Shown piece by piece: positions 48,001 through 54,000 of a stretch of 64,000 nucleotides of DNA. Made by a program: the position numbers. Source of the DNA: Acidobacteriota bacterium (GTDB lineage: Bacteria; Acidobacteriota; Vicinamibacteria; Vicinamibacterales; CAVVIG01); the NCBI GenBank assembly GCA_023265105.1, contig JAHFUJ010000001.1, forward strand, positions 15,243 through 79,242, read 5' to 3'. The first letter of the stretch is position 1; each line of letters begins with the position of its first letter.

Positions 48001-51000
48001 TCTCATTCACGGCCGGACGGCCGGCTGGACTACTTGACATGGCGGCGCGACTGGAACCGTCGGTGCGGAGGCGTGTGTTCAGGGCGATTCTGTTCGTCTC
48101 CTTTACCTCGGTGGCCCTGGCTGCCGCCGAAATCGCCACGCGGATCATCGACGGGTATCGGCTCGTATCGCTCCGCCTGGAGATGTCGCGCGAGCCCCTG
48201 CAGCCGGCCGAGCCGGAGCACCGATCAGGGTCGCAGAAATGGCGGGGCGACACCGACGCGTTGCCGTTCGTTCAGCAGCTTCCAGTGGCGGCGGGCGTCG
48301 ACCGCGAGTGGTTCACCGCGCACGTGCCCGATCGGCCCGTCGCACGTCCTGACGCGGACCTGCAGGCCCGTGCAGAACGCTACACGCGTGTTGCCGAACT
48401 GCACGCGAATTACGAATGGAACTGGAAGTTTGTGGCCAAGGCGGTTTGTCGAGGCGACTACCGCGATGGTGGAGACACCTTCAATCAACTTGATGACATT
48501 TATGTGTTCGATCCGACCGATGACTCGGAATGGCCGACGTACCGATTCTTGAGGGGGGTCACCTATCCCTCCGGCTTGCGGACAAATGCCTTTGGCTGGC
48601 GTGGGCCCGATATTCCGCTGAACAAACCGCCTGGGACGATCCGCATCGCGTTTATCGGCGCCTCGACCACCGTGAGTCCTCACGCCGAACCTTACTCGTA
48701 CCCGGAGCTGGTCGGATTCTGGCTCAACAAATGGGCCGCCTCGCATGGCCTCGGCATATCTGTCGACGTGATCAACGCCGGGCGCGAAGGCGTGAACTCA
48801 CGGAGCATCCAGGCCGTCGTGCGGCAGGAGCTGGCGCCGGTTGAACCGGACCTCGCCGTGTACTACGAAGGCGCCAATCAGTTCTGGCCGGCCGATTTCC
48901 TCTGGACGAGGCTGCTGCCGCGCAGCCGTGTCAGCGGCCCTCAGCCGAGCGTGCTGGCGTCGTTTTCGGCGATCGCCCGTCGCGTCGAAAGTGCTATGAG
49001 GCACGCGGGTCTGCCTGGCGTTGAACCGCCAAAACCACCTCTCATCGTCAAATGGCCGCGCGATCTCGACGAGCGCGACCCGGATCTCGCGCATCCGCAT
49101 TTGCCAATCGAACTGCCGCACATCCTGGGCGACATCGAGATCATTCGTCGTGCGCTGGAGGAGGAAGGTGGCAAGCTCGTGATGACGTCTTTCGTCTGGC
49201 TGGTGCATCCCGGCCTCGTGCTCGATCCGGTGAGTGACGCCATGCTTTTTGACTACTTGAACACCATGTACTGGCCGTTCAACTACGCGCATATGCGGCG
49301 CTTCCTGGATTTTCAGACACGGGCGTTTCGGAAGTACGCCGCCGTGCACGGTCTCGACTTCATCGACCTGGTGGCCGCGTATCCTCGGGATCCTCGCCTG
49401 TTCGACGATGCGGTTCATATGACGCATGCGGGCATTCGCCTGCAGGCGTGGATCGTGTTCAACGGGCTCGTGCCCATCATCGAGCGACGGATGGCGTCTC
49501 ACGAGTGGCCGCGACCCATCCGGCATGTCCTGTCCAAACACCCAGCATTCGGCGAGCGTCGTCTGGTGCCGATGACCGAAGTACGCGCTGCGTGCAACGC
49601 GGCGGTGCACTAATGCTTCCCACGCTTGACATGTCGTCGCCACGAAAGCCGTTCACGCGGTGGGGTCTGCTGAGGGTGATGCTGTTGGTGGCCTGTACAG
49701 TCATGGCCCTCGCGGCGGCCGAAATTGCCGCGCGGATCACCGACGGCTATCGGCTCACCTCGCTCCGCCTGGAGGTGTCGCACGACCGGCTGTGGCCGGC
49801 TGACCCGGAACCCCGGTCGGGGCCGCAGAAATGGCGAGGCGACGCCGATGCGTGGCCCTACGTGCGGCAGCTTCCCGTTACGCCGGGCGTCGACCGCGAG
49901 TGGTTCGCGTCGCGACCGCCTGACCGGGGCGTCCCGCGCCCTGACGCGGACCTAGAGGCCCGCGCCAAACGGTATAAGGGCGACGAGCTGTACGCGAATT
50001 ACGAATGGAACTGGGAGTACGTGGTCAATACCGTTTGTCGAGGCGAGCACCGCGAAAACAAAGAGCTCTTCAACAGGCTCGACGACATTTACGTGTTCGA
50101 TCCGACCGATGGATCGGAGTCGCCGACCTACCGCTTCTTGAGGAACGTGACGTATCCAACCGGTCTGCGGACGAACACGTTCGGTTGGCGCGGGCCCGAC
50201 ATCCCATTGAACAAGCCGCCCCGGACGATCCGCATTGCGTTTGTCGGCGCGTCCACGACCGTCGGTCCTCACGGGGAGCCATATTCGTATCCAGAGCTGG
50301 TCGGGTTGTGGCTGAATCGATGGATGGAGGCGCATCACCTTGATATCTCCATCGACGCGATCAACGCCGGGCGCGAAGGCGTGAACTCGCGGAGCATCCA
50401 GGCCGTCGTGCGGCAGGAAGCGGTGCCGGTCGAACCGGACCTCGTCGTGTACTACGAAGGCTCCAATCAGTTCTGGCCTGCCGATTTCATTTCGACGACG
50501 CTGCCTCCGCGCAGCCGCCTCAGCGGTCCGCAGCCGAGTGTGCTGGCGTCGTATTCGGTGATCGCCCGTCGCGTCGAGAGCGTCGTCAGACACGCGGTGG
50601 AGCCGGGCTTCGAGCCGCCCAAGCCGCCTCTCGTCGTCAACTGGCCGCCCGATCTTGACGAACGCGACCCGGATCTCGCCCATCCGCATCTGCCAATTGA
50701 ACTGCCGCACATCCTGGGCGACTTGGAGATCATGCGTCGGGCAGTGGACGAGGAAGGTGGCCGCTTCGTGATGACGTCTTTCGTCTGGCTCGTGTATCCC
50801 GGCCTCGTGCTCGATCCGGTACGCGATGCCTTTGCGTATGACTATCTGAACACCATGTTCTGGCCGTTCACGTACGCTCAGATGCGGCGCTTCCTGGATT
50901 TTCAGACGCAGGCGTTTCGGAAGTACGCCGCCGTGCACGGCCTCGATTTCATCGATCTGGTGGCCGCGTATCCTCGCGATCCCCGCCTGTTCGACGACGG

Positions 51001-54000
51001 AATTCACATGACGCGCGCGGGCATTCACCTGCAGGCCTGGATTGCGTTCAACGGGATCGTGCCCATTATCGAGCGGCAGCTGGCGTCTCACGCGTGGCCG
51101 CGACCCGTCCGGCATGCCCTGTCCAGACATCCGGCATTCGGCGAGCGTCGTCTCGTCTCGATGACCGAAGTGCGGGCCACGTGCAACGCGGCGGCGCGCT
51201 AATCCTTCCCACGTTTGACATGTCGTCGCCACGAAAACGGTTGACGCGGCGGGGTCTGCTGCGGGTGATGCTGTTGGTGGCCTGTACAGGCATGACCCTT
51301 CCTGCGGCCGAGATTGCCGCGCGGATCATCGACGGATATCGGCTCACCTCGCTCCGCCTGAAAGGATCGCGCGATCGGGTGCGTCCGGCCGTCCCGGACG
51401 ACCGATCGGGGTCGCAGAAATGGCGAGGCGACGTTGACGCGCGGTCCTACATGCAGCGGCTACCGGTGGCGGCGGGCGTCGACCGCGAGTGGTTCACCTT
51501 ACGAATGCCGGATCGGCCCGTTCTGCGCCCCGACCCGGACCTGGAGGCCCGCGCGAAACGGTACGAGGACGCTGAGTTGCCGGCCAACTATGAGTGGAAT
51601 GGGAAAGCGGTGGCCAACGCGGTTTGCCGGGGCGAGCACCGTAACCTGGTGGCATTTGATCGGTTTGAGGATGTCTACGTGTTCGACGCGATCGACGGCT
51701 CCGACCTGCCGACGTTCCGATTCCTGCAGGACGCCGCCTATCCATCGGGCCTCCGAACGAACGCGTTCGGATGGCGCGGATCAGAGATTGCGCTCAACAA
51801 ACCGCCGCACACACTCCGTATCGCGTTTGTCGGCGCCTCGACCACCGTGAGTCCTCACGCGGAGCCGTACTCATACCCGGAACTGGTGGGATTCTGGCTC
51901 AATACATGGGCAGCATCGCATGGTCTCGACATCTCCGTCGAGGTGATGAATGCCGGGCGCGAGGCGCTGACATCGCGTAGCTTCCAAGCGATCGTGCGCC
52001 AGGAGCTGACGCCAGTCGAGCCGGATCTCGTTGTCTACTACGAAGGGTCCAATCAGTTCTGGCCGTCGGACTTCCTCTCGACGCCAGTACCCCGACCTAG
52101 CCGGGTGATGGGACTGGTGCGCCGTGGCTTGGTGTTGTATTCGGCCCTCGCAAACCGGCTTCTCTATGTGGTACGGAAGTCGACGGAGTCTGGTTCCGAA
52201 CCGCCAAAGCCGCGGTTGACGATCGACTGGCCGCGTGACGTCGACGAGCGCAACCCGGATCTCAACGACCCGCGTTTGCCGATCGCTCTGCCCACGATCC
52301 TCGACGACCTCGAAACGATTCGCCACACGCTGGAGGAGAACGATGGCAAGCTGGTGATGACGTCCTTCGTCTGGCTGGTCCATCCGGGCCTGGTCGTGGA
52401 CCCGGCTCGTGACGCCGATCTGTTTTCGTATCTGAACACGACATTCTGGCCGTTCACGTACGCGCACATGCGGCGCTTCCTTGACTTTCAGACAGAGGTA
52501 TTTCGGAAGTACGCCGCCGTGCACAGTCTCGACTTCATCGATCTGGCAGCCGCGTATCCACGAGATCCTCGCTTGTTCGACGACGCGATTCACATGACGC
52601 ATGCGGGCATTCGCCTGCAGGCGTGGATTGTGTTCAACGGACTCGTGCCCATCCTCGAGCGGCGGCTGGCGTCTCACGAGTGGCCACGACCTGCCCGCCA
52701 TACGCTGTCCAAGCATCCGGCGTTCGCCGGTCGCCGCCTTGTCCCGATGACCGAGATACGGGCCACGTGCAATGCGGCGGCGCACTAGTTCTTCCCACCA
52801 GTGAAATACCTCTATATCGGTCCGCACATCAATGGCGTCTCCACCCTGACGACCGACGCGCTGTCGCCGACAACCGAGCGCCACCATCTCACGCTGGACC
52901 CCGGCGACGCCATGATCGCTGGGAATCCGCTCGACGAAGTCACCCGGCGCAACGGCGTTGATGGCGTCGTGATTGGTCTCACCGGTGGTGTTCCCGATCG
53001 GGCGAGGCTGCGGATCGCGGAGGCGGCGCTCGGGCGGGGCCTGCGCGTCTGGCTGTACTGGCCGAACGAACAGGCGGTCGAGTGTGTGGACGACGAGCGG
53101 TTGCAAAGCCTGCATCGGCTTCGACGCGCGGTGACCGCGATGGAACGCCTCGGGCGTCCCATCCACCTTGCGATGGAGCGCTGGAAGCGCCTCCGCCCCG
53201 GGCTTCGTTGGATCTACCACGGCAGGTTTCCGGTTCGGCGCGATGATCTTCTGGCGCAGCTCGAGCGTTGGAGCCTCGACGTACGGCCGGTGCCTTTTCG
53301 AAGCCTCACCGGCGTTCCGAGCCCGTCGTCGAAGCTCGGCGCTGGTCTTTACGTGAGGACCGACTTCTGGGCGCGAATCTCCTCTGGCGGCAGCTATGGT
53401 CATACGTGTTACGTCGCCAAGGAGCTTGCGGCGACGACGAACAGATTCGCGTGCCTCCTCCCGCAGCGTTACGACCTCCTCGACACGCTCGGCGTGCCGC
53501 ACCTCGCCATGGATCCGCCGCCAACCTTCGTCAACGAAGACGCGATGGTGACCGCGTCCGATCACTACTACCCGAGCCTCAAGACGGCGTGCGCACTGCT
53601 TCGCCCAGCCTACATCTACGAACGGTTGTGTCTCGGCAACTGGGTCGCGGCGCTTCTGAGCCACGAGCTGCAGATTCCGTATCTGGTCGAGTACAACGGC
53701 TCTGAGATCTCGATGCAGCGTAGCTCCAACAACACGGCGCCGTTTTACGAGGACGTGTACCTGAAGGCGGAGGAAGTTGCGTTTCGCCAGGCGACGGCGA
53801 TCTCGGTCATATCGGAGCACGTGAAAGCCGATCTCGTCTCGCGCGGCGTGGACGCTCGCAAGATTCTGGTGAATCCGAACGGTGCCGACCTCGAGAGCTA
53901 CGCGCCCGCGACGCCGGACGACAAGCGCCGGCTCCGCTCGACGTTGGGATTCGACGACGACGATTGCGTCGTCGGTTTCACCGGCACGTTCGGCTGGTGG

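Follow-up and report, generated by a model that had tools for sequence, protein, structure and literature searches.

PatB consists of a periplasmic SGNH domain on a single N-terminal TM helix, with a linker between the helix and the SGNH core, and uses Ser-His-Asp chemistry with an acyl-Ser intermediate (PMC12148441). The SGNH domain of OafA, OafB and OatA works on the periplasmic side, with O-antigen or peptidoglycan as substrate, and the specificity for the acceptor is shaped by a periplasmic extension (PMC7448272, PMC9558356). TviD is a stand-alone SGNH-fold enzyme from an ABC-transporter-dependent locus for a GT4-built acidic amino-sugar polymer and works without a membrane donor; it is cytoplasmic, with a Cys-His dyad, a degenerate block I, non-conserved blocks II and III and a C-terminal TPR (PMC8760489). 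Here, three tandem SGNH genes (A, B and C) are compared with these systems. The window, meaning the whole 64 kb stretch of DNA that was analysed, belongs to a giant sugar-polymer cluster in an uncultured soil-type bacterium.

The three-gene array

The three collinear paralog genes of 524, 529 and 522 aa reported in the first-pass annotation were recovered as ORFs, and they are real, intact genes.

48039..49613, + strand: paralog A, 524 aa ORF with a Lipase_GDSL_2 match below threshold, an AF2 model and Foldseek SGNH matches
48129 (E31), 48141 (R35), 48447 (Cys137), 48663 (Ser209), + strand: residue positions of paralog A
48780 (Gly248/Arg249), 48876 (Asn280), 49407 (Asp457), 49416 (His460), 49593 (Cys519), + strand: further residue positions of paralog A
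49611..49615, + strand: A/B junction, TAATG, with stop/start overlap
49613..51202, + strand: paralog B, 529 aa if the start is the ATG in TAATG
49631..51202, + strand: paralog B, 523 aa if the start is instead the one in the conserved TTGACATG
50252 (Ser208), 50996 (Asp456), 51005 (His459), + strand: catalytic residues of paralog B
51200..51222, + strand: B/C junction, TAATC (51200-51204) followed by cttcccacgtTTGACATG; C lacks the homologous upstream ATG but retains the conserved start at 51220
51220..52788, + strand: paralog C, 522 aa, of an older paralog lineage
51838 (Ser207), 52582 (Asp455), 52591 (His458), + strand: catalytic residues of paralog C

In pairwise alignments, A and B share 76% of their amino acids and 81% of their nucleotides, while C is 70% and 75% identical to either. 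The coding frames lie on the + strand with a GC3 of 0.75-0.79. The long antisense ORFs were rejected as shadow frames (GC1 > GC3).

The A/B junction reads TAATG, as described earlier. The ATG to ATC change at the B/C junction is likewise present. The start of A, however, coincides in the alignment with B's second Met and C's start, and the TTGACATG context is conserved around this ATG in all three genes, so the common start is probably that ATG; the change may thus be without consequence.

Tandem repeats in metagenomes can be mis-assembled, a caveat already raised in the first-pass annotation, and the array might then be an assembly artefact or hold decaying pseudogene copies. This reading is effectively refuted. 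The array recurs in independent assemblies, and the artefact explanation therefore fails: two contigs from separate samples (L080 and L081) are collinear with the window over all three genes, and a Logan contig (L082) covers B plus both of its junctions, at 99.86-99.95% identity to the window. The two independent metagenome assemblies thus contain each of the three genes at more than 99.8% identity. The exact B protein was found again in ENA and Logan assemblies, and a related organism carries three family copies at the same site. Furthermore, the copies differ by 19-25% of their nucleotides, which is too much for collapse or expansion of a repeat, and all are intact with a dN/dS of about 0.25. 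The array is a solid but fairly ordinary finding; its enzymes are of the serine esterase/acyltransferase type and belong to an unstudied family.

Selection and mosaic history

Pairwise dN/dS among the three genes is 0.23-0.28, which indicates purifying selection, and a scan along them gave no sign of diversifying selection, with values below 1 everywhere. Similarity is distributed unevenly. Nucleotide identity reaches 84-91% in codons 421-500 and only 53-80% in the middle of the genes, and in codons 441-500 the amino-acid identity of A and C is 90-95%, against 75-85% for A and B. These windowed identities agree with the earlier description of a conserved tail in which A and C stand together against B. 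The closest pair shifts along the gene, from B-C in codons 1-50 to A-C in 201-250 and A-B in 251-400. The mosaic history or gene conversion suggested in the first-pass annotation is borne out by this heterogeneity (chi-square, p = 2e-16 to 7e-15, of the order of 1e-15) and by a low dS of 0.24-0.5 at both gene ends, against 1 to more than 2 in the middle. Two tracts were delimited:

49631..49780 (B) and 51220..51369 (C), + strand: N-terminal gene-conversion tract, in which C is 82% identical to B in amino acids and 53% identical to its own clade
49359..49613, + strand: C-terminal homogenised tail of A (codons ~441-524), with equivalents in B and C; dS 0.34-0.57, A-C identity 90%

In a neighbour-joining tree, calculated without bootstrap support, C groups in an old paralog clade common to other organisms, while A and B are recent duplicates. 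Residues 121-200 and 251-400 of C are 77-92% identical to its own clade and only 56-70% identical to A and B. Thus, the tandem triplication proposed earlier holds as a set of three tandem paralogs, but as the outcome of a two-step history rather than of one event. An old tandem pair, one C-type and one A/B-type gene, would have existed first; the A/B-type gene duplicated recently, and the anchor region, together with the 5' ends and 3' tails of the genes, was afterwards homogenised by gene conversion. Within each paralog clade the insertion specific to the family is conserved, whereas it diverges from clade to clade, a pattern that fits paralog specialisation.

Fold, anchor and topology

The SGNH fold was confirmed by an AF2 model of paralog A (pLDDT 90, pTM 0.88), for which the best Foldseek matches were GDSL/SGNH hydrolases of ~200 aa (E 4e-7, probability 1.0; target-normalised TM-score 0.55-0.75). 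The templates 1YZF, 5JD3, 3RJT and 3W7V topped the search; the closest solved structures are hydrolases, and PatB (7tjb, 8tlb) comes only about 40th. The catalytic blocks I (GASTT), II (NAGRE), III (YEGxNQ) and V (DxxH) named earlier occur in all three proteins. S209, G207, T211, R249, G278, N280, D457 and H460 are invariant in 80/80 homologs, and position 248 is Gly in 66/80 and Ala in 13/80; practically all of the 126 remote relatives keep S209, N280, D457 and H460. Clustering at 50% identity divides this uncharacterised family into about 340 clusters, and its scores stay under the Pfam thresholds: Lipase_GDSL_2 (PF13472) reached 22-28.7 bits, under the gathering threshold of 32.9 bits, and profile scans of A, B and C gave no ALGX, DHHW or DltD match at E<=1 and no DUF459/PatB or PC-esterase match. 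The predicted SGNH core would comprise the nucleophile Ser209, an oxyanion hole of Gly248 and Asn280, and Asp457-x-x-His460. Two elements peculiar to the family would wrap around it, an N-terminal extension of 130 aa and an insertion of roughly 95 aa, both rich in invariant Arg, Trp, Tyr and Asn.

Each protein has a single hydrophobic N-terminal segment (Kyte-Doolittle peaks of 1.6-2.3) and the AF2 model has a helix at residues 7-38, in agreement with the membrane anchor noted before. The N side of the anchor carries 2.5 K/R and 0.4 D/E, the C side 2.1 K/R and 1.8 D/E. The soluble domain has just two Cys, each conserved in 79-80/80 homologs. Among remote relatives, 64 have both, 38 neither and 20+4 a single one (odds ratio 30, p = 4e-13). 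Given the positive-inside anchor and the co-varying Cys pair, the catalytic domain is most likely periplasmic, and a Cys137-Cys519 disulfide most likely staples it. The signal-anchor helix would lie N-in and close in an invariant E-x-x-x-R, followed by a flexible linker and the globular domain. E31 and R35 are conserved to the same degree as the catalytic triad in the 80 homologs and the remote relatives. The motif E-[LIFA]-x-x-R also closes the anchor in small SGNH proteins that are unrelated to these, one of which adjoins an MBOAT (locus L048).

The topology bears on a TviD-like reading, in which the paralogs would be cytoplasmic O-acetyltransferases tethered by their N-terminus to the inner membrane face, acetylating the growing chain from acetyl-CoA beside GT4 polymerases and before Wzm/Wzt export. 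TviD, an O-acetyltransferase with the SGNH fold, has no partner protein of this kind and cooperates with a GT4 enzyme in an ABC-transporter pathway, and it was modelled on the same four templates that lead the search here (PMC8760489); GT4 and SGNH genes are interleaved in the locus, and the missing membrane donor would be explained. Yet the charge distribution predicts N-in/C-out, a disulfide would be unusual in the cytoplasm, and TviD has no TM segment and no blocks II/III, with a Cys nucleophile and a TPR (PMC8760489), none of which applies to A, B or C. This reading is very improbable.

Polysaccharide locus, acyl donors and known systems

The genomic context includes the following genes:

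3985..5040, + strand: degenerate anchored SGNH-like gene, with the nucleophile Ser changed to Thr and the block V His to Asn
10228..12877, + strand: Wzm (ABC-2 permease) and Wzt (ATPase with Wzt_C domain), from a profile scan
45776..48037, + strand: ADH_zinc_N and GFO/IDH/MocA fusion oxidoreductase, the upstream operon partner, with its stop 1 nt before A's start; syntenic in relatives
52801..55395, + strand: GT4 glycosyltransferase and methyltransferase fusion, the downstream operon partner; syntenic in relatives
60523..61590, + strand: separate small anchored SGNH gene (blocks GGS, NAA.GG, GQND, DDVH)
63438..64000 (>64000), + strand: another anchored SGNH gene (GDS and GND blocks), cut by the window end

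The two further SGNH genes and the degenerate one are present as first described. Since Wzm and Wzt are encoded, the locus is an ABC-transporter-dependent polysaccharide pathway; the window also holds two GT-C-like periplasmic-face enzymes. The array lies in a conserved cassette of AsnB, WecB, heparinase-II/III-like, ADH/GFO, one to three members of the A/B/C family and GT4-MT, whose genes overlap or are separated by 1-nt gaps, and promoter or terminator signals do not exceed chance.

An acyltransferase partner was sought by Pfam scans that covered those + strand ORFs which were taken as genes and reach 220 aa or more. As the first-pass annotation had stated, no MBOAT or AT3 was recognised in the window, and none was found in the syntenic loci of relatives or in 77/79 genome loci of the family; an MBOAT adjoins in only 2/79 (L048 and L068), where it has its own small SGNH partner. 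The sole orphan polytopic protein of the window is GT-C-like and not acyltransferase-like, and no obvious cytoplasmic O-acyltransferase was seen in the window, only one GNAT.

The donor might be encoded elsewhere in the genome. In such a hub-and-spoke arrangement, a single membrane acyltransferase, be it an MBOAT, an AT3 or a different TmAT, would serve A, B, C and the other anchored SGNH proteins as periplasmic O-acyltransferases, which would dock through the E-x-x-x-R end of the anchor helix and each acylate a different position. If true, bacteria would have their own version of the RWA-TBL system of plants. Every extracytoplasmic SGNH glycan transferase that has been characterised depends on such a donor protein (PMC12148441, PMC9558356), and the PatB anchor helix is modelled in contact with PatA (PMC12148441). 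The triad-like conservation of E31 and R35 and the recurrence of the motif in small SGNH proteins, including the one next to the MBOAT in L048, point the same way, and five intact SGNH genes in a locus without an O-acyltransferase fit the addition of groups better than their removal. However, known systems are nearly always linked or fused, neither family occurs in the window, the syntenic relatives or the 77/79 loci, the MBOATs of L048 and L068 are paired with their own small SGNH proteins, and the four canonical blocks, with hydrolases as nearest structures well ahead of PatB, do not suggest a transferase of this kind. We consider the arrangement somewhat unlikely.

Membrane lipids could also take part. 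Phospholipid donors can be used by SGNH acyltransferases such as Aeromonas GCAT, and A, B and C might be tethered periplasmic GDSL lipases or acyltransferases acting on phospholipids, lipid A or lipid-linked intermediates, with membrane lipids as possible acyl donors. The short linker would keep the catalytic domain at the membrane. Most of the remote family members (37-45% identity; Reyranella and others) lie outside glycan loci, beside luciferase-like monooxygenases, amidohydrolases and RND pumps. In the window clade, however, the genes are apparently translationally coupled within a conserved sugar-nucleotide and GT cassette, and the invariant Arg, Trp, Tyr and Asn of the extension and insertion would suit a glycan groove. 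A lipid-directed role is unlikely.

The best reading, to which we give about an even chance, is that the paralogs are periplasmic, partner-independent ester-editing enzymes with paralog-specific specificity, encoded, as part of the same reading, by co-transcribed genes for three functional paralogs. They probably edit ester groups of the surface polysaccharide. With most remote family members outside glycan loci, however, the family in general may have a different envelope substrate. For A, B and C, the targets would be ester-linked groups on the polysaccharide of uronic and amino sugars that the Wzm/Wzt locus produces; an acyl-Ser209 intermediate would form, leading to de-O-acylation or to transacylation from a donor already outside the cytoplasm, without a partner protein; this would contrast with the MBOAT/AT3-fed transfer in PatB, AlgX and OafA. 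The extension and insertion are expected to form the substrate groove, and the paralogs differ mainly there, so the edited position or residue probably varies from one paralog to the next. For the three copies, the regio-specificities or diversifying glycan editing proposed earlier are hypothetical roles.

Among the known systems, TviD, the Vi antigen O-acetyltransferase, is alike as a stand-alone SGNH-fold enzyme in an ABC-transporter/GT4 locus with no membrane donor, but A, B and C are anchored by a TM segment, keep the four blocks in canonical form and lack a TPR. The AT3-SGNH fusions OafA, OafB and OatA share a periplasmic-face SGNH domain with an extension, whereas AT3 is neither fused to nor near A, B or C. 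In AlgJ/AlgX-AlgI, WssI-WssH and DltD-DltB, anchored or periplasmic SGNH-like proteins are encoded inside polysaccharide operons too, and one system can have several of them (AlgJ plus AlgX), but these systems require an adjacent MBOAT that is absent here. PatB/Ape1, the peptidoglycan O-acetyltransferase/esterase of the Gram-negative OAP cluster, has the same TM helix-linker-SGNH architecture and Ser-His-Asp chemistry, and PatB is among the fold matches; it adjoins its MBOAT donor PatA, unlike A, B and C, which have no linked donor and are larger (~520 aa), with the 130-aa extension, the 95-aa insertion and the Cys pair. Plant TBL/XOAT1 proteins are type-II anchored GDS...DxxH enzymes; their numerous paralogs differ in polymer or regio-specificity, and their donor is encoded separately. 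TBL/XOAT1 (PC-esterase family) with RWA (10.1101/2020.01.16.909127) is an analogy only, A, B and C being bacterial and having another accessory domain. The Lipase_GDSL_2 (PF13472) esterases (Axe2, 1YZF, 4IYJ) are ~200-aa soluble proteins without anchor, extension or insertion, but they give the best sequence and structure matches to A, B and C, with blocks I, II, III and V canonical.

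The array and its locus

The three paralogs, A, B and C, that encode N-terminally anchored SGNH proteins are arranged head to tail:

48039..49613, + strand, paralog A, ORF of 524 aa
49613..51202, + strand, paralog B, ORF of 529 aa
51220..52788, + strand, paralog C, ORF of 522 aa

They can be aligned end to end with just two one-residue gaps, and these coordinates and the alignment agree with the three collinear paralogs of the first-pass annotation. Pairwise alignment gave amino acid identities of 76% (A-B), 70% (A-C) and 70% (B-C), and nucleotide identities of 81, 75 and 75%, respectively. 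The forward frames have a GC3 of 0.75–0.79, which is the codon-position GC pattern of true genes in this genome of 65% GC. An antisense ORF of 879 aa (51871..54510, − strand), which runs across C and the downstream GT4-methyltransferase fusion, was rejected as a shadow frame by its GC1 of 0.79 against a GC3 of 0.67, and so were the other long antisense ORFs over the array, where GC1 also exceeds GC3.

The array is genuine and not an assembly artefact, a possibility raised at first pass. The copies differ by 19–25% at the DNA level, which is too much for collapse or expansion by an assembler. The exact B protein is present on contigs from three other samples: two ENA assemblies (14.6 and 12.1 kb), which are collinear with the window over the whole array at 99.86% identity, and a Logan contig, which covers both junctions of B at 99.95%. 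Related organisms carry the family, i.e., the anchored SGNH proteins of about 520 aa that include A, B and C, in different numbers. Three family genes occupy the same site in one relative, whose GT4-methyltransferase is 84% identical (L083), one gene is found in each of two others (L084 and L085), and four genes stand in tandem in a Bryobacteraceae genome (L029); thus, sites of this kind hold between 1 and 4 copies.

The A/B junction reads TAATG (49611-49615), and TAATC stands at the equivalent place between B and C, both as first described. The start codons of A and C and the second Met of B align with one another, and all three have the TTGACATG context in common, so that the ATG in this context is probably the shared start, while the upstream ATG of B may be incidental. 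At first pass, C was assigned a start at the second conserved Met, and this start is probably not a shifted one, since A and B align there too. The repeat unit extends from TTGACATG to about 12 nt past the stop codon, and TAGTTCTTCCCAC, which follows the stop of C, is still similar to the internal junctions.

Nearly the entire window is one polysaccharide locus on the + strand, which includes:

10228..12877, Wzm/Wzt, with a Wzt_C domain
sugar genes: two UDP-sugar dehydrogenases, a DegT aminotransferase, a GNAT and several epimerases
further sugar genes: two AsnB-type amidotransferases and two UDP-GlcNAc 2-epimerases
transferases: at least nine methyltransferase domains, GT2 and GT4 enzymes and a PMT_2 GT-C enzyme

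This inventory indicates an ABC-transporter-dependent polymer, presumptively of modified amino-uronic sugars, the sugar type being judged from the gene set. The array is flanked by an ADH/GFO fusion oxidoreductase, whose stop lies 1 nt before the start of A, and by the GT4-methyltransferase fusion. A cassette of AsnB, WecB, a heparinase-II/III-like protein, ADH/GFO, the family and the GT4-methyltransferase is kept in relatives. A scan of 45–56.5 kb found no promoter or terminator signal above shuffled expectation.

Several other parts of the locus were also noted. The 10000-24000 block has a GC content of 0.53–0.59 versus 0.62–0.68 elsewhere in the window; it holds Wzm/Wzt, a GT2, three methyltransferases, an orphan GT-C-like protein, an AsnB paralog and two epimerases, and may be a horizontally acquired or exchangeable module. 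The heparinase II/III-like protein of the conserved cassette (43667-45772) has seven Cys and neither signal peptide nor transmembrane segment, and is probably cytoplasmic. Such a place is unusual for a lyase, which hints at a role other than degradation, in the biosynthesis of sugars or polymer. The syntenic relatives L084 and L085 have a second copy. Two fusions are unusual, a carbamoyltransferase (NodU/CmcH type)-methyltransferase (37105-39915) and the GT4-methyltransferase (52801-55395); considered with the Wzt_C domain, both are candidate sources of a chain-terminating modification that the transporter would recognise. Another pair of tandem paralogs (32966-34981 and 34837-37050; 671 and 737 aa, with 47% identity) is GT2-like at the N-terminus (S-x-VV-x-x-RND-x-HGGDPL) and gave no match in Pfam.

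Fold, family and history of the paralogs

In a Pfam scan, A, B and C matched only Lipase_GDSL_2 (PF13472), with 26.0, 28.7 and 22.0 bits against a gathering threshold of 32.9, and the AlgX/AlgJ, DHHW, DltD, PatB (DUF459) and PC-esterase profiles gave no match at E ≤ 1. By these scores, none of the three proteins reaches the curated cut-off of any Pfam SGNH family. NCBIfam gave no match, and a profile search of PDB sequences gave marginal GDSL matches only (6hfz, E = 1.2e-3, over blocks I-III). An AlphaFold2 model built from an alignment of 80 sequences (pLDDT 90, pTM 0.88) returned 80 Foldseek matches in the PDB at E ≤ 1e-3, and SGNH/GDSL-type proteins make up nearly all of the 50 top matches listed. 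The best among those listed are 4IYJ, 3P94, 4PPY, 1YZF, 5JD3 and Axe2, with E-values from 4e-7, a probability of 1.0, TM-scores of 0.55–0.75 normalised to the target and a match of about 290 alignment columns; PatB ranked lower. The model therefore upholds the SGNH fold proposed at first pass, and places A, B and C in the SGNH superfamily with a predicted three-layer alpha/beta/alpha fold, a central parallel sheet and blocks I, II, III and V.

All block residues are present in each copy, again in line with the earlier reading. With the numbering of A, 80/80 homologs have S209 (block I, G-A-S-T-T), N280 (block III) and the block V pair D457 and H460, and G248 (block II) is Gly in 66/80 and Ala in 13/80, next to an invariant R249. 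The same catalytic residues are retained in 126 remoter relatives. Blocks I-V put the SGNH core at roughly residues 200–490; it is preceded by an extension of 130 aa (residues 65–200) and interrupted by a family-specific insertion (about residues 285–378). The model is confident in both additions, where many Trp, Tyr, Arg and Asn residues are invariant.

An exhaustive profile search over 1.84 billion cluster representatives gave 340 clusters at E ≤ 1e-30, a number that rose to 1,340 with a cut-off of E ≤ 1e-10, and the records, where named, are nearly always called 'hypothetical protein'. In one-genome-per-species data, the family ranges over Acidobacteriota (Vicinamibacterales, Bryobacterales), Reyranella and other Alphaproteobacteria, Gammaproteobacteria, Planctomycetota, Nitrospiraceae, Binatia and Anaerolineales, with the closest match, at 50% identity, in a subdivision-6 (gp6) acidobacterium. 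The finding defines a sizeable and wholly uncharacterised SGNH branch (about 340 clusters at 50% identity, E ≤ 1e-30) of distinctive architecture, in surface-polysaccharide loci of abundant yet uncultured soil bacteria. Its practical value is modest, as candidate carbohydrate esterases or transferases and targets for heterologous expression.

The dN/dS ratio is 0.23–0.28 for all pairs and exceeds 1 in no 60-codon window (maximum 0.85, in the low-dS anchor region), which points to the maintenance of all three copies by selection. Positive or diversifying selection was rejected, as every window is below 1. The closest pair changes along the gene, being B-C in codons 1–50 (30 informative sites versus 9 and 4), A-C in codons 201–250 and A-B in codons 251–400; the heterogeneity of informative sites has p = 2e-16 to 7e-15, and dS is 0.24–0.5 at both gene ends versus 1 to >2 in codons 90–330. 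In a neighbour-joining tree with 70 close homologs, made without bootstrap support, A and B are sisters, C falls in a separate clade with proteins of other organisms, and the contig-mates of these proteins are placed in yet other clades. In residues 121–200 and 251–400, C is 77–92% identical to its own clade versus 56–70% to A and B. At the ends, it is 82% identical to B versus at most 53% to its own clade (residues 1–50), and 79% identical to A and B versus at most 68% (last 24 residues). The tree signal thus shifts along the alignment, and neighbours are more alike at their ends than orthologs, as under gene conversion. Taken together, the tree, the regional identities and the changing closest pair argue for an old paralog pair with a recent A/B duplication, in which gene conversion has homogenised the anchor, the 5′ end and the 3′ tail. 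The mosaic history suspected in the first-pass annotation is borne out; of its tandem triplication, the three paralogs stand, but a single event does not.

Acyl-donor partner and membrane anchor

A Pfam scan of the window, in which + strand ORFs of 220 aa or more were counted as genes, found no MBOAT (PF03062) or AT3 (PF01757), fused or nearby, which agrees with the lack of such a partner noted earlier, and none was found in the syntenic loci of relatives. An MBOAT adjoins a family gene in just 2 of 79 genome loci (L048 and L068), where its pairing is with another SGNH; in L048, this is a small SGNH gene beside the MBOAT. An orphan polytopic protein (15271..16824), with 37 homologs of which none has a Pfam domain on record, was rejected as the missing membrane acyltransferase: its AlphaFold2 model (pLDDT 81) is unlike MBOAT or AT3 and weakly resembles the GT-C enzymes STT3, PglB and AftA (E = 1.7e-3; TM-score 0.49 normalised to the query). 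With the PMT_2 protein (2273-3988), this GT-C likeness would imply glycan modification at the periplasmic face in the locus.

Arrays of two to four family genes occur in Bryobacterales/Terriglobia genomes (L029:2916-11516, L064, L071, L014, L050 and L051). In these six loci, the family co-occurs with a conserved polytopic protein of about 730 aa and with a protein of about 830 aa, which is homologous to the window's tandem pair at 32966..37050 (tblastn matches in L014, L029, L050, L051 and L071). The former was set aside as the missing acyltransferase, having a weak YfhO (GT-C) match only and nothing in the PDB. L064, L071 and L014 have a further polytopic protein of about 820–880 aa, with a spermine-synthase-like domain in L064 and L071.

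Across the 79 loci, immediate neighbours are heterogeneous in domain-level counts. In Reyranella, a luciferase-like monooxygenase lies upstream (16 neighbours matched) and an amidohydrolase downstream (15). Over all loci, five upstream neighbours are AcrB-type RND transporter proteins; clustering at the sequence level over the 79 loci gave no conserved partner beyond the Reyranella synteny. The non-glycan contexts of remote relatives suggest, as an unlikely alternative, a lipid-directed role of the GCAT type. Exact-protein look-up returned no record for A or for the gene 61606..63447, and short contigs only for the gene 726..1706.

Each of A, B and C has a single N-terminal hydrophobic helix, the anchor seen at first pass. 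The 15 residues before it hold on family average 2.5 K/R and 0.4 D/E, and the 15 after it 2.1 K/R and 1.8 D/E, a charge bias that, by the positive-inside rule, predicts the N-terminus in and the catalytic domain out. The only Cys of the soluble domain are C137 (80/80 homologs) and C519 (79/80). Among the 126 remote relatives, 64 have both, 38 neither and 24 one (odds ratio 30, p = 4e-13), and such joint retention or loss is how a structural disulfide would behave, which in turn favours a periplasmic domain. A TviD-like cytoplasmic role with acetyl-CoA as donor would explain the missing partner as well (PMC8760489), but neither the predicted topology nor the Cys pair agrees with it. TviD is soluble and cytoplasmic, with a Cys nucleophile in a degenerate block I and a C-terminal TPR domain (PMC8760489), whereas A, B and C have a transmembrane anchor, a Ser nucleophile, canonical blocks and no TPR match.

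At the end of the anchor helix stands an invariant E31-x-x-x-R35, with D-G-Y-R-L after it; these residues are conserved as strongly as the catalytic triad. The E-[LIFA]-x-x-R motif was located as follows:

48129-48143, A, end of anchor helix
49721-49735, B, end of anchor helix
51310-51324, C, end of anchor helix
60523-61590, 63438-64000 and 3985-5040, other anchored SGNH genes of the window with the motif
L084:11578-12684, L083:5072-6184 and L048:8906-9949, anchored SGNH genes of relatives with the motif

It closes the anchor helix of every N-terminally anchored SGNH protein seen (variants AAEIATR, VELAAR, IELWVR, LEFGAR and GELALR), even in otherwise unrelated SGNH subfamilies, including one that adjoins an MBOAT, and may be a docking or interface motif.

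Proposed role and comparison with known systems

The combined picture is of an SGNH apparatus intact in three membrane-tethered and selected paralogs, with an operon position in a glycan cassette. The catalytic domain would be periplasmic and stapled by a disulfide, and would form an acyl-Ser209 intermediate with ester substituents of an exported or lipid-linked polymer. A, B and C would work without a dedicated MBOAT or AT3, as esterases or as transacylases with a donor already outside the cytoplasm. The paralogs are most divergent in the extension and insertion (A-C identity is 38–42% in residues 281–340), and these parts are conserved within paralog clades, which argues for differences in acceptor or site specificity rather than drift.

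The main rival explanation, that A, B and C are transferases fed by an unlinked membrane donor, seems rather improbable to us. It draws on the invariant E-x-x-x-R shared with unrelated small SGNH proteins, one of them adjoining an MBOAT, and on the PatB anchor helix, which has been modelled in contact with PatA (PMC12148441).

The consistent lack of MBOAT and AT3 beside the family points either to an esterase in polymer maturation or to an unknown route of acyl supply. A previously unrecognised extracytoplasmic route, which O-acylates or re-patterns surface polysaccharide without a linked MBOAT or AT3, is unlikely in our estimate, in either of two versions. In one, a single unlinked membrane donor would serve a variable array of anchored SGNH 'spokes' that dock by way of their invariant E-x-x-x-R, a bacterial parallel to plant RWA-TBL; in the other, a truly partner-independent transacylase would use a periplasmic or lipid donor. 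If either were true, glycan ester codes at strain level would arise from a copy number of 1–4 and from gene conversion. In addition, this array, with its varying copy number and its gene conversion, offers a natural example of glycan-decorating enzymes that diversify while anchor and tail stay common.

A, B and C belong to an uncharacterised family within the known SGNH superfamily. Three features stand out: a donor partner is consistently lacking, the anchor motif is invariant, and the array varies in copy number and undergoes gene conversion; any new chemistry behind them would be putative. To our knowledge, every well-studied extracytoplasmic glycan acylation system depends on a linked MBOAT or AT3. 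In contrast to MBOAT-SGNH and AT3-SGNH systems, the defining membrane acyltransferase was not found beside A, B and C. Their multi-paralog organisation recalls the plant TBL proteins, and they would work most like PatB/Ape1, which are anchored periplasmic SGNH enzymes, as A, B and C are predicted to be.
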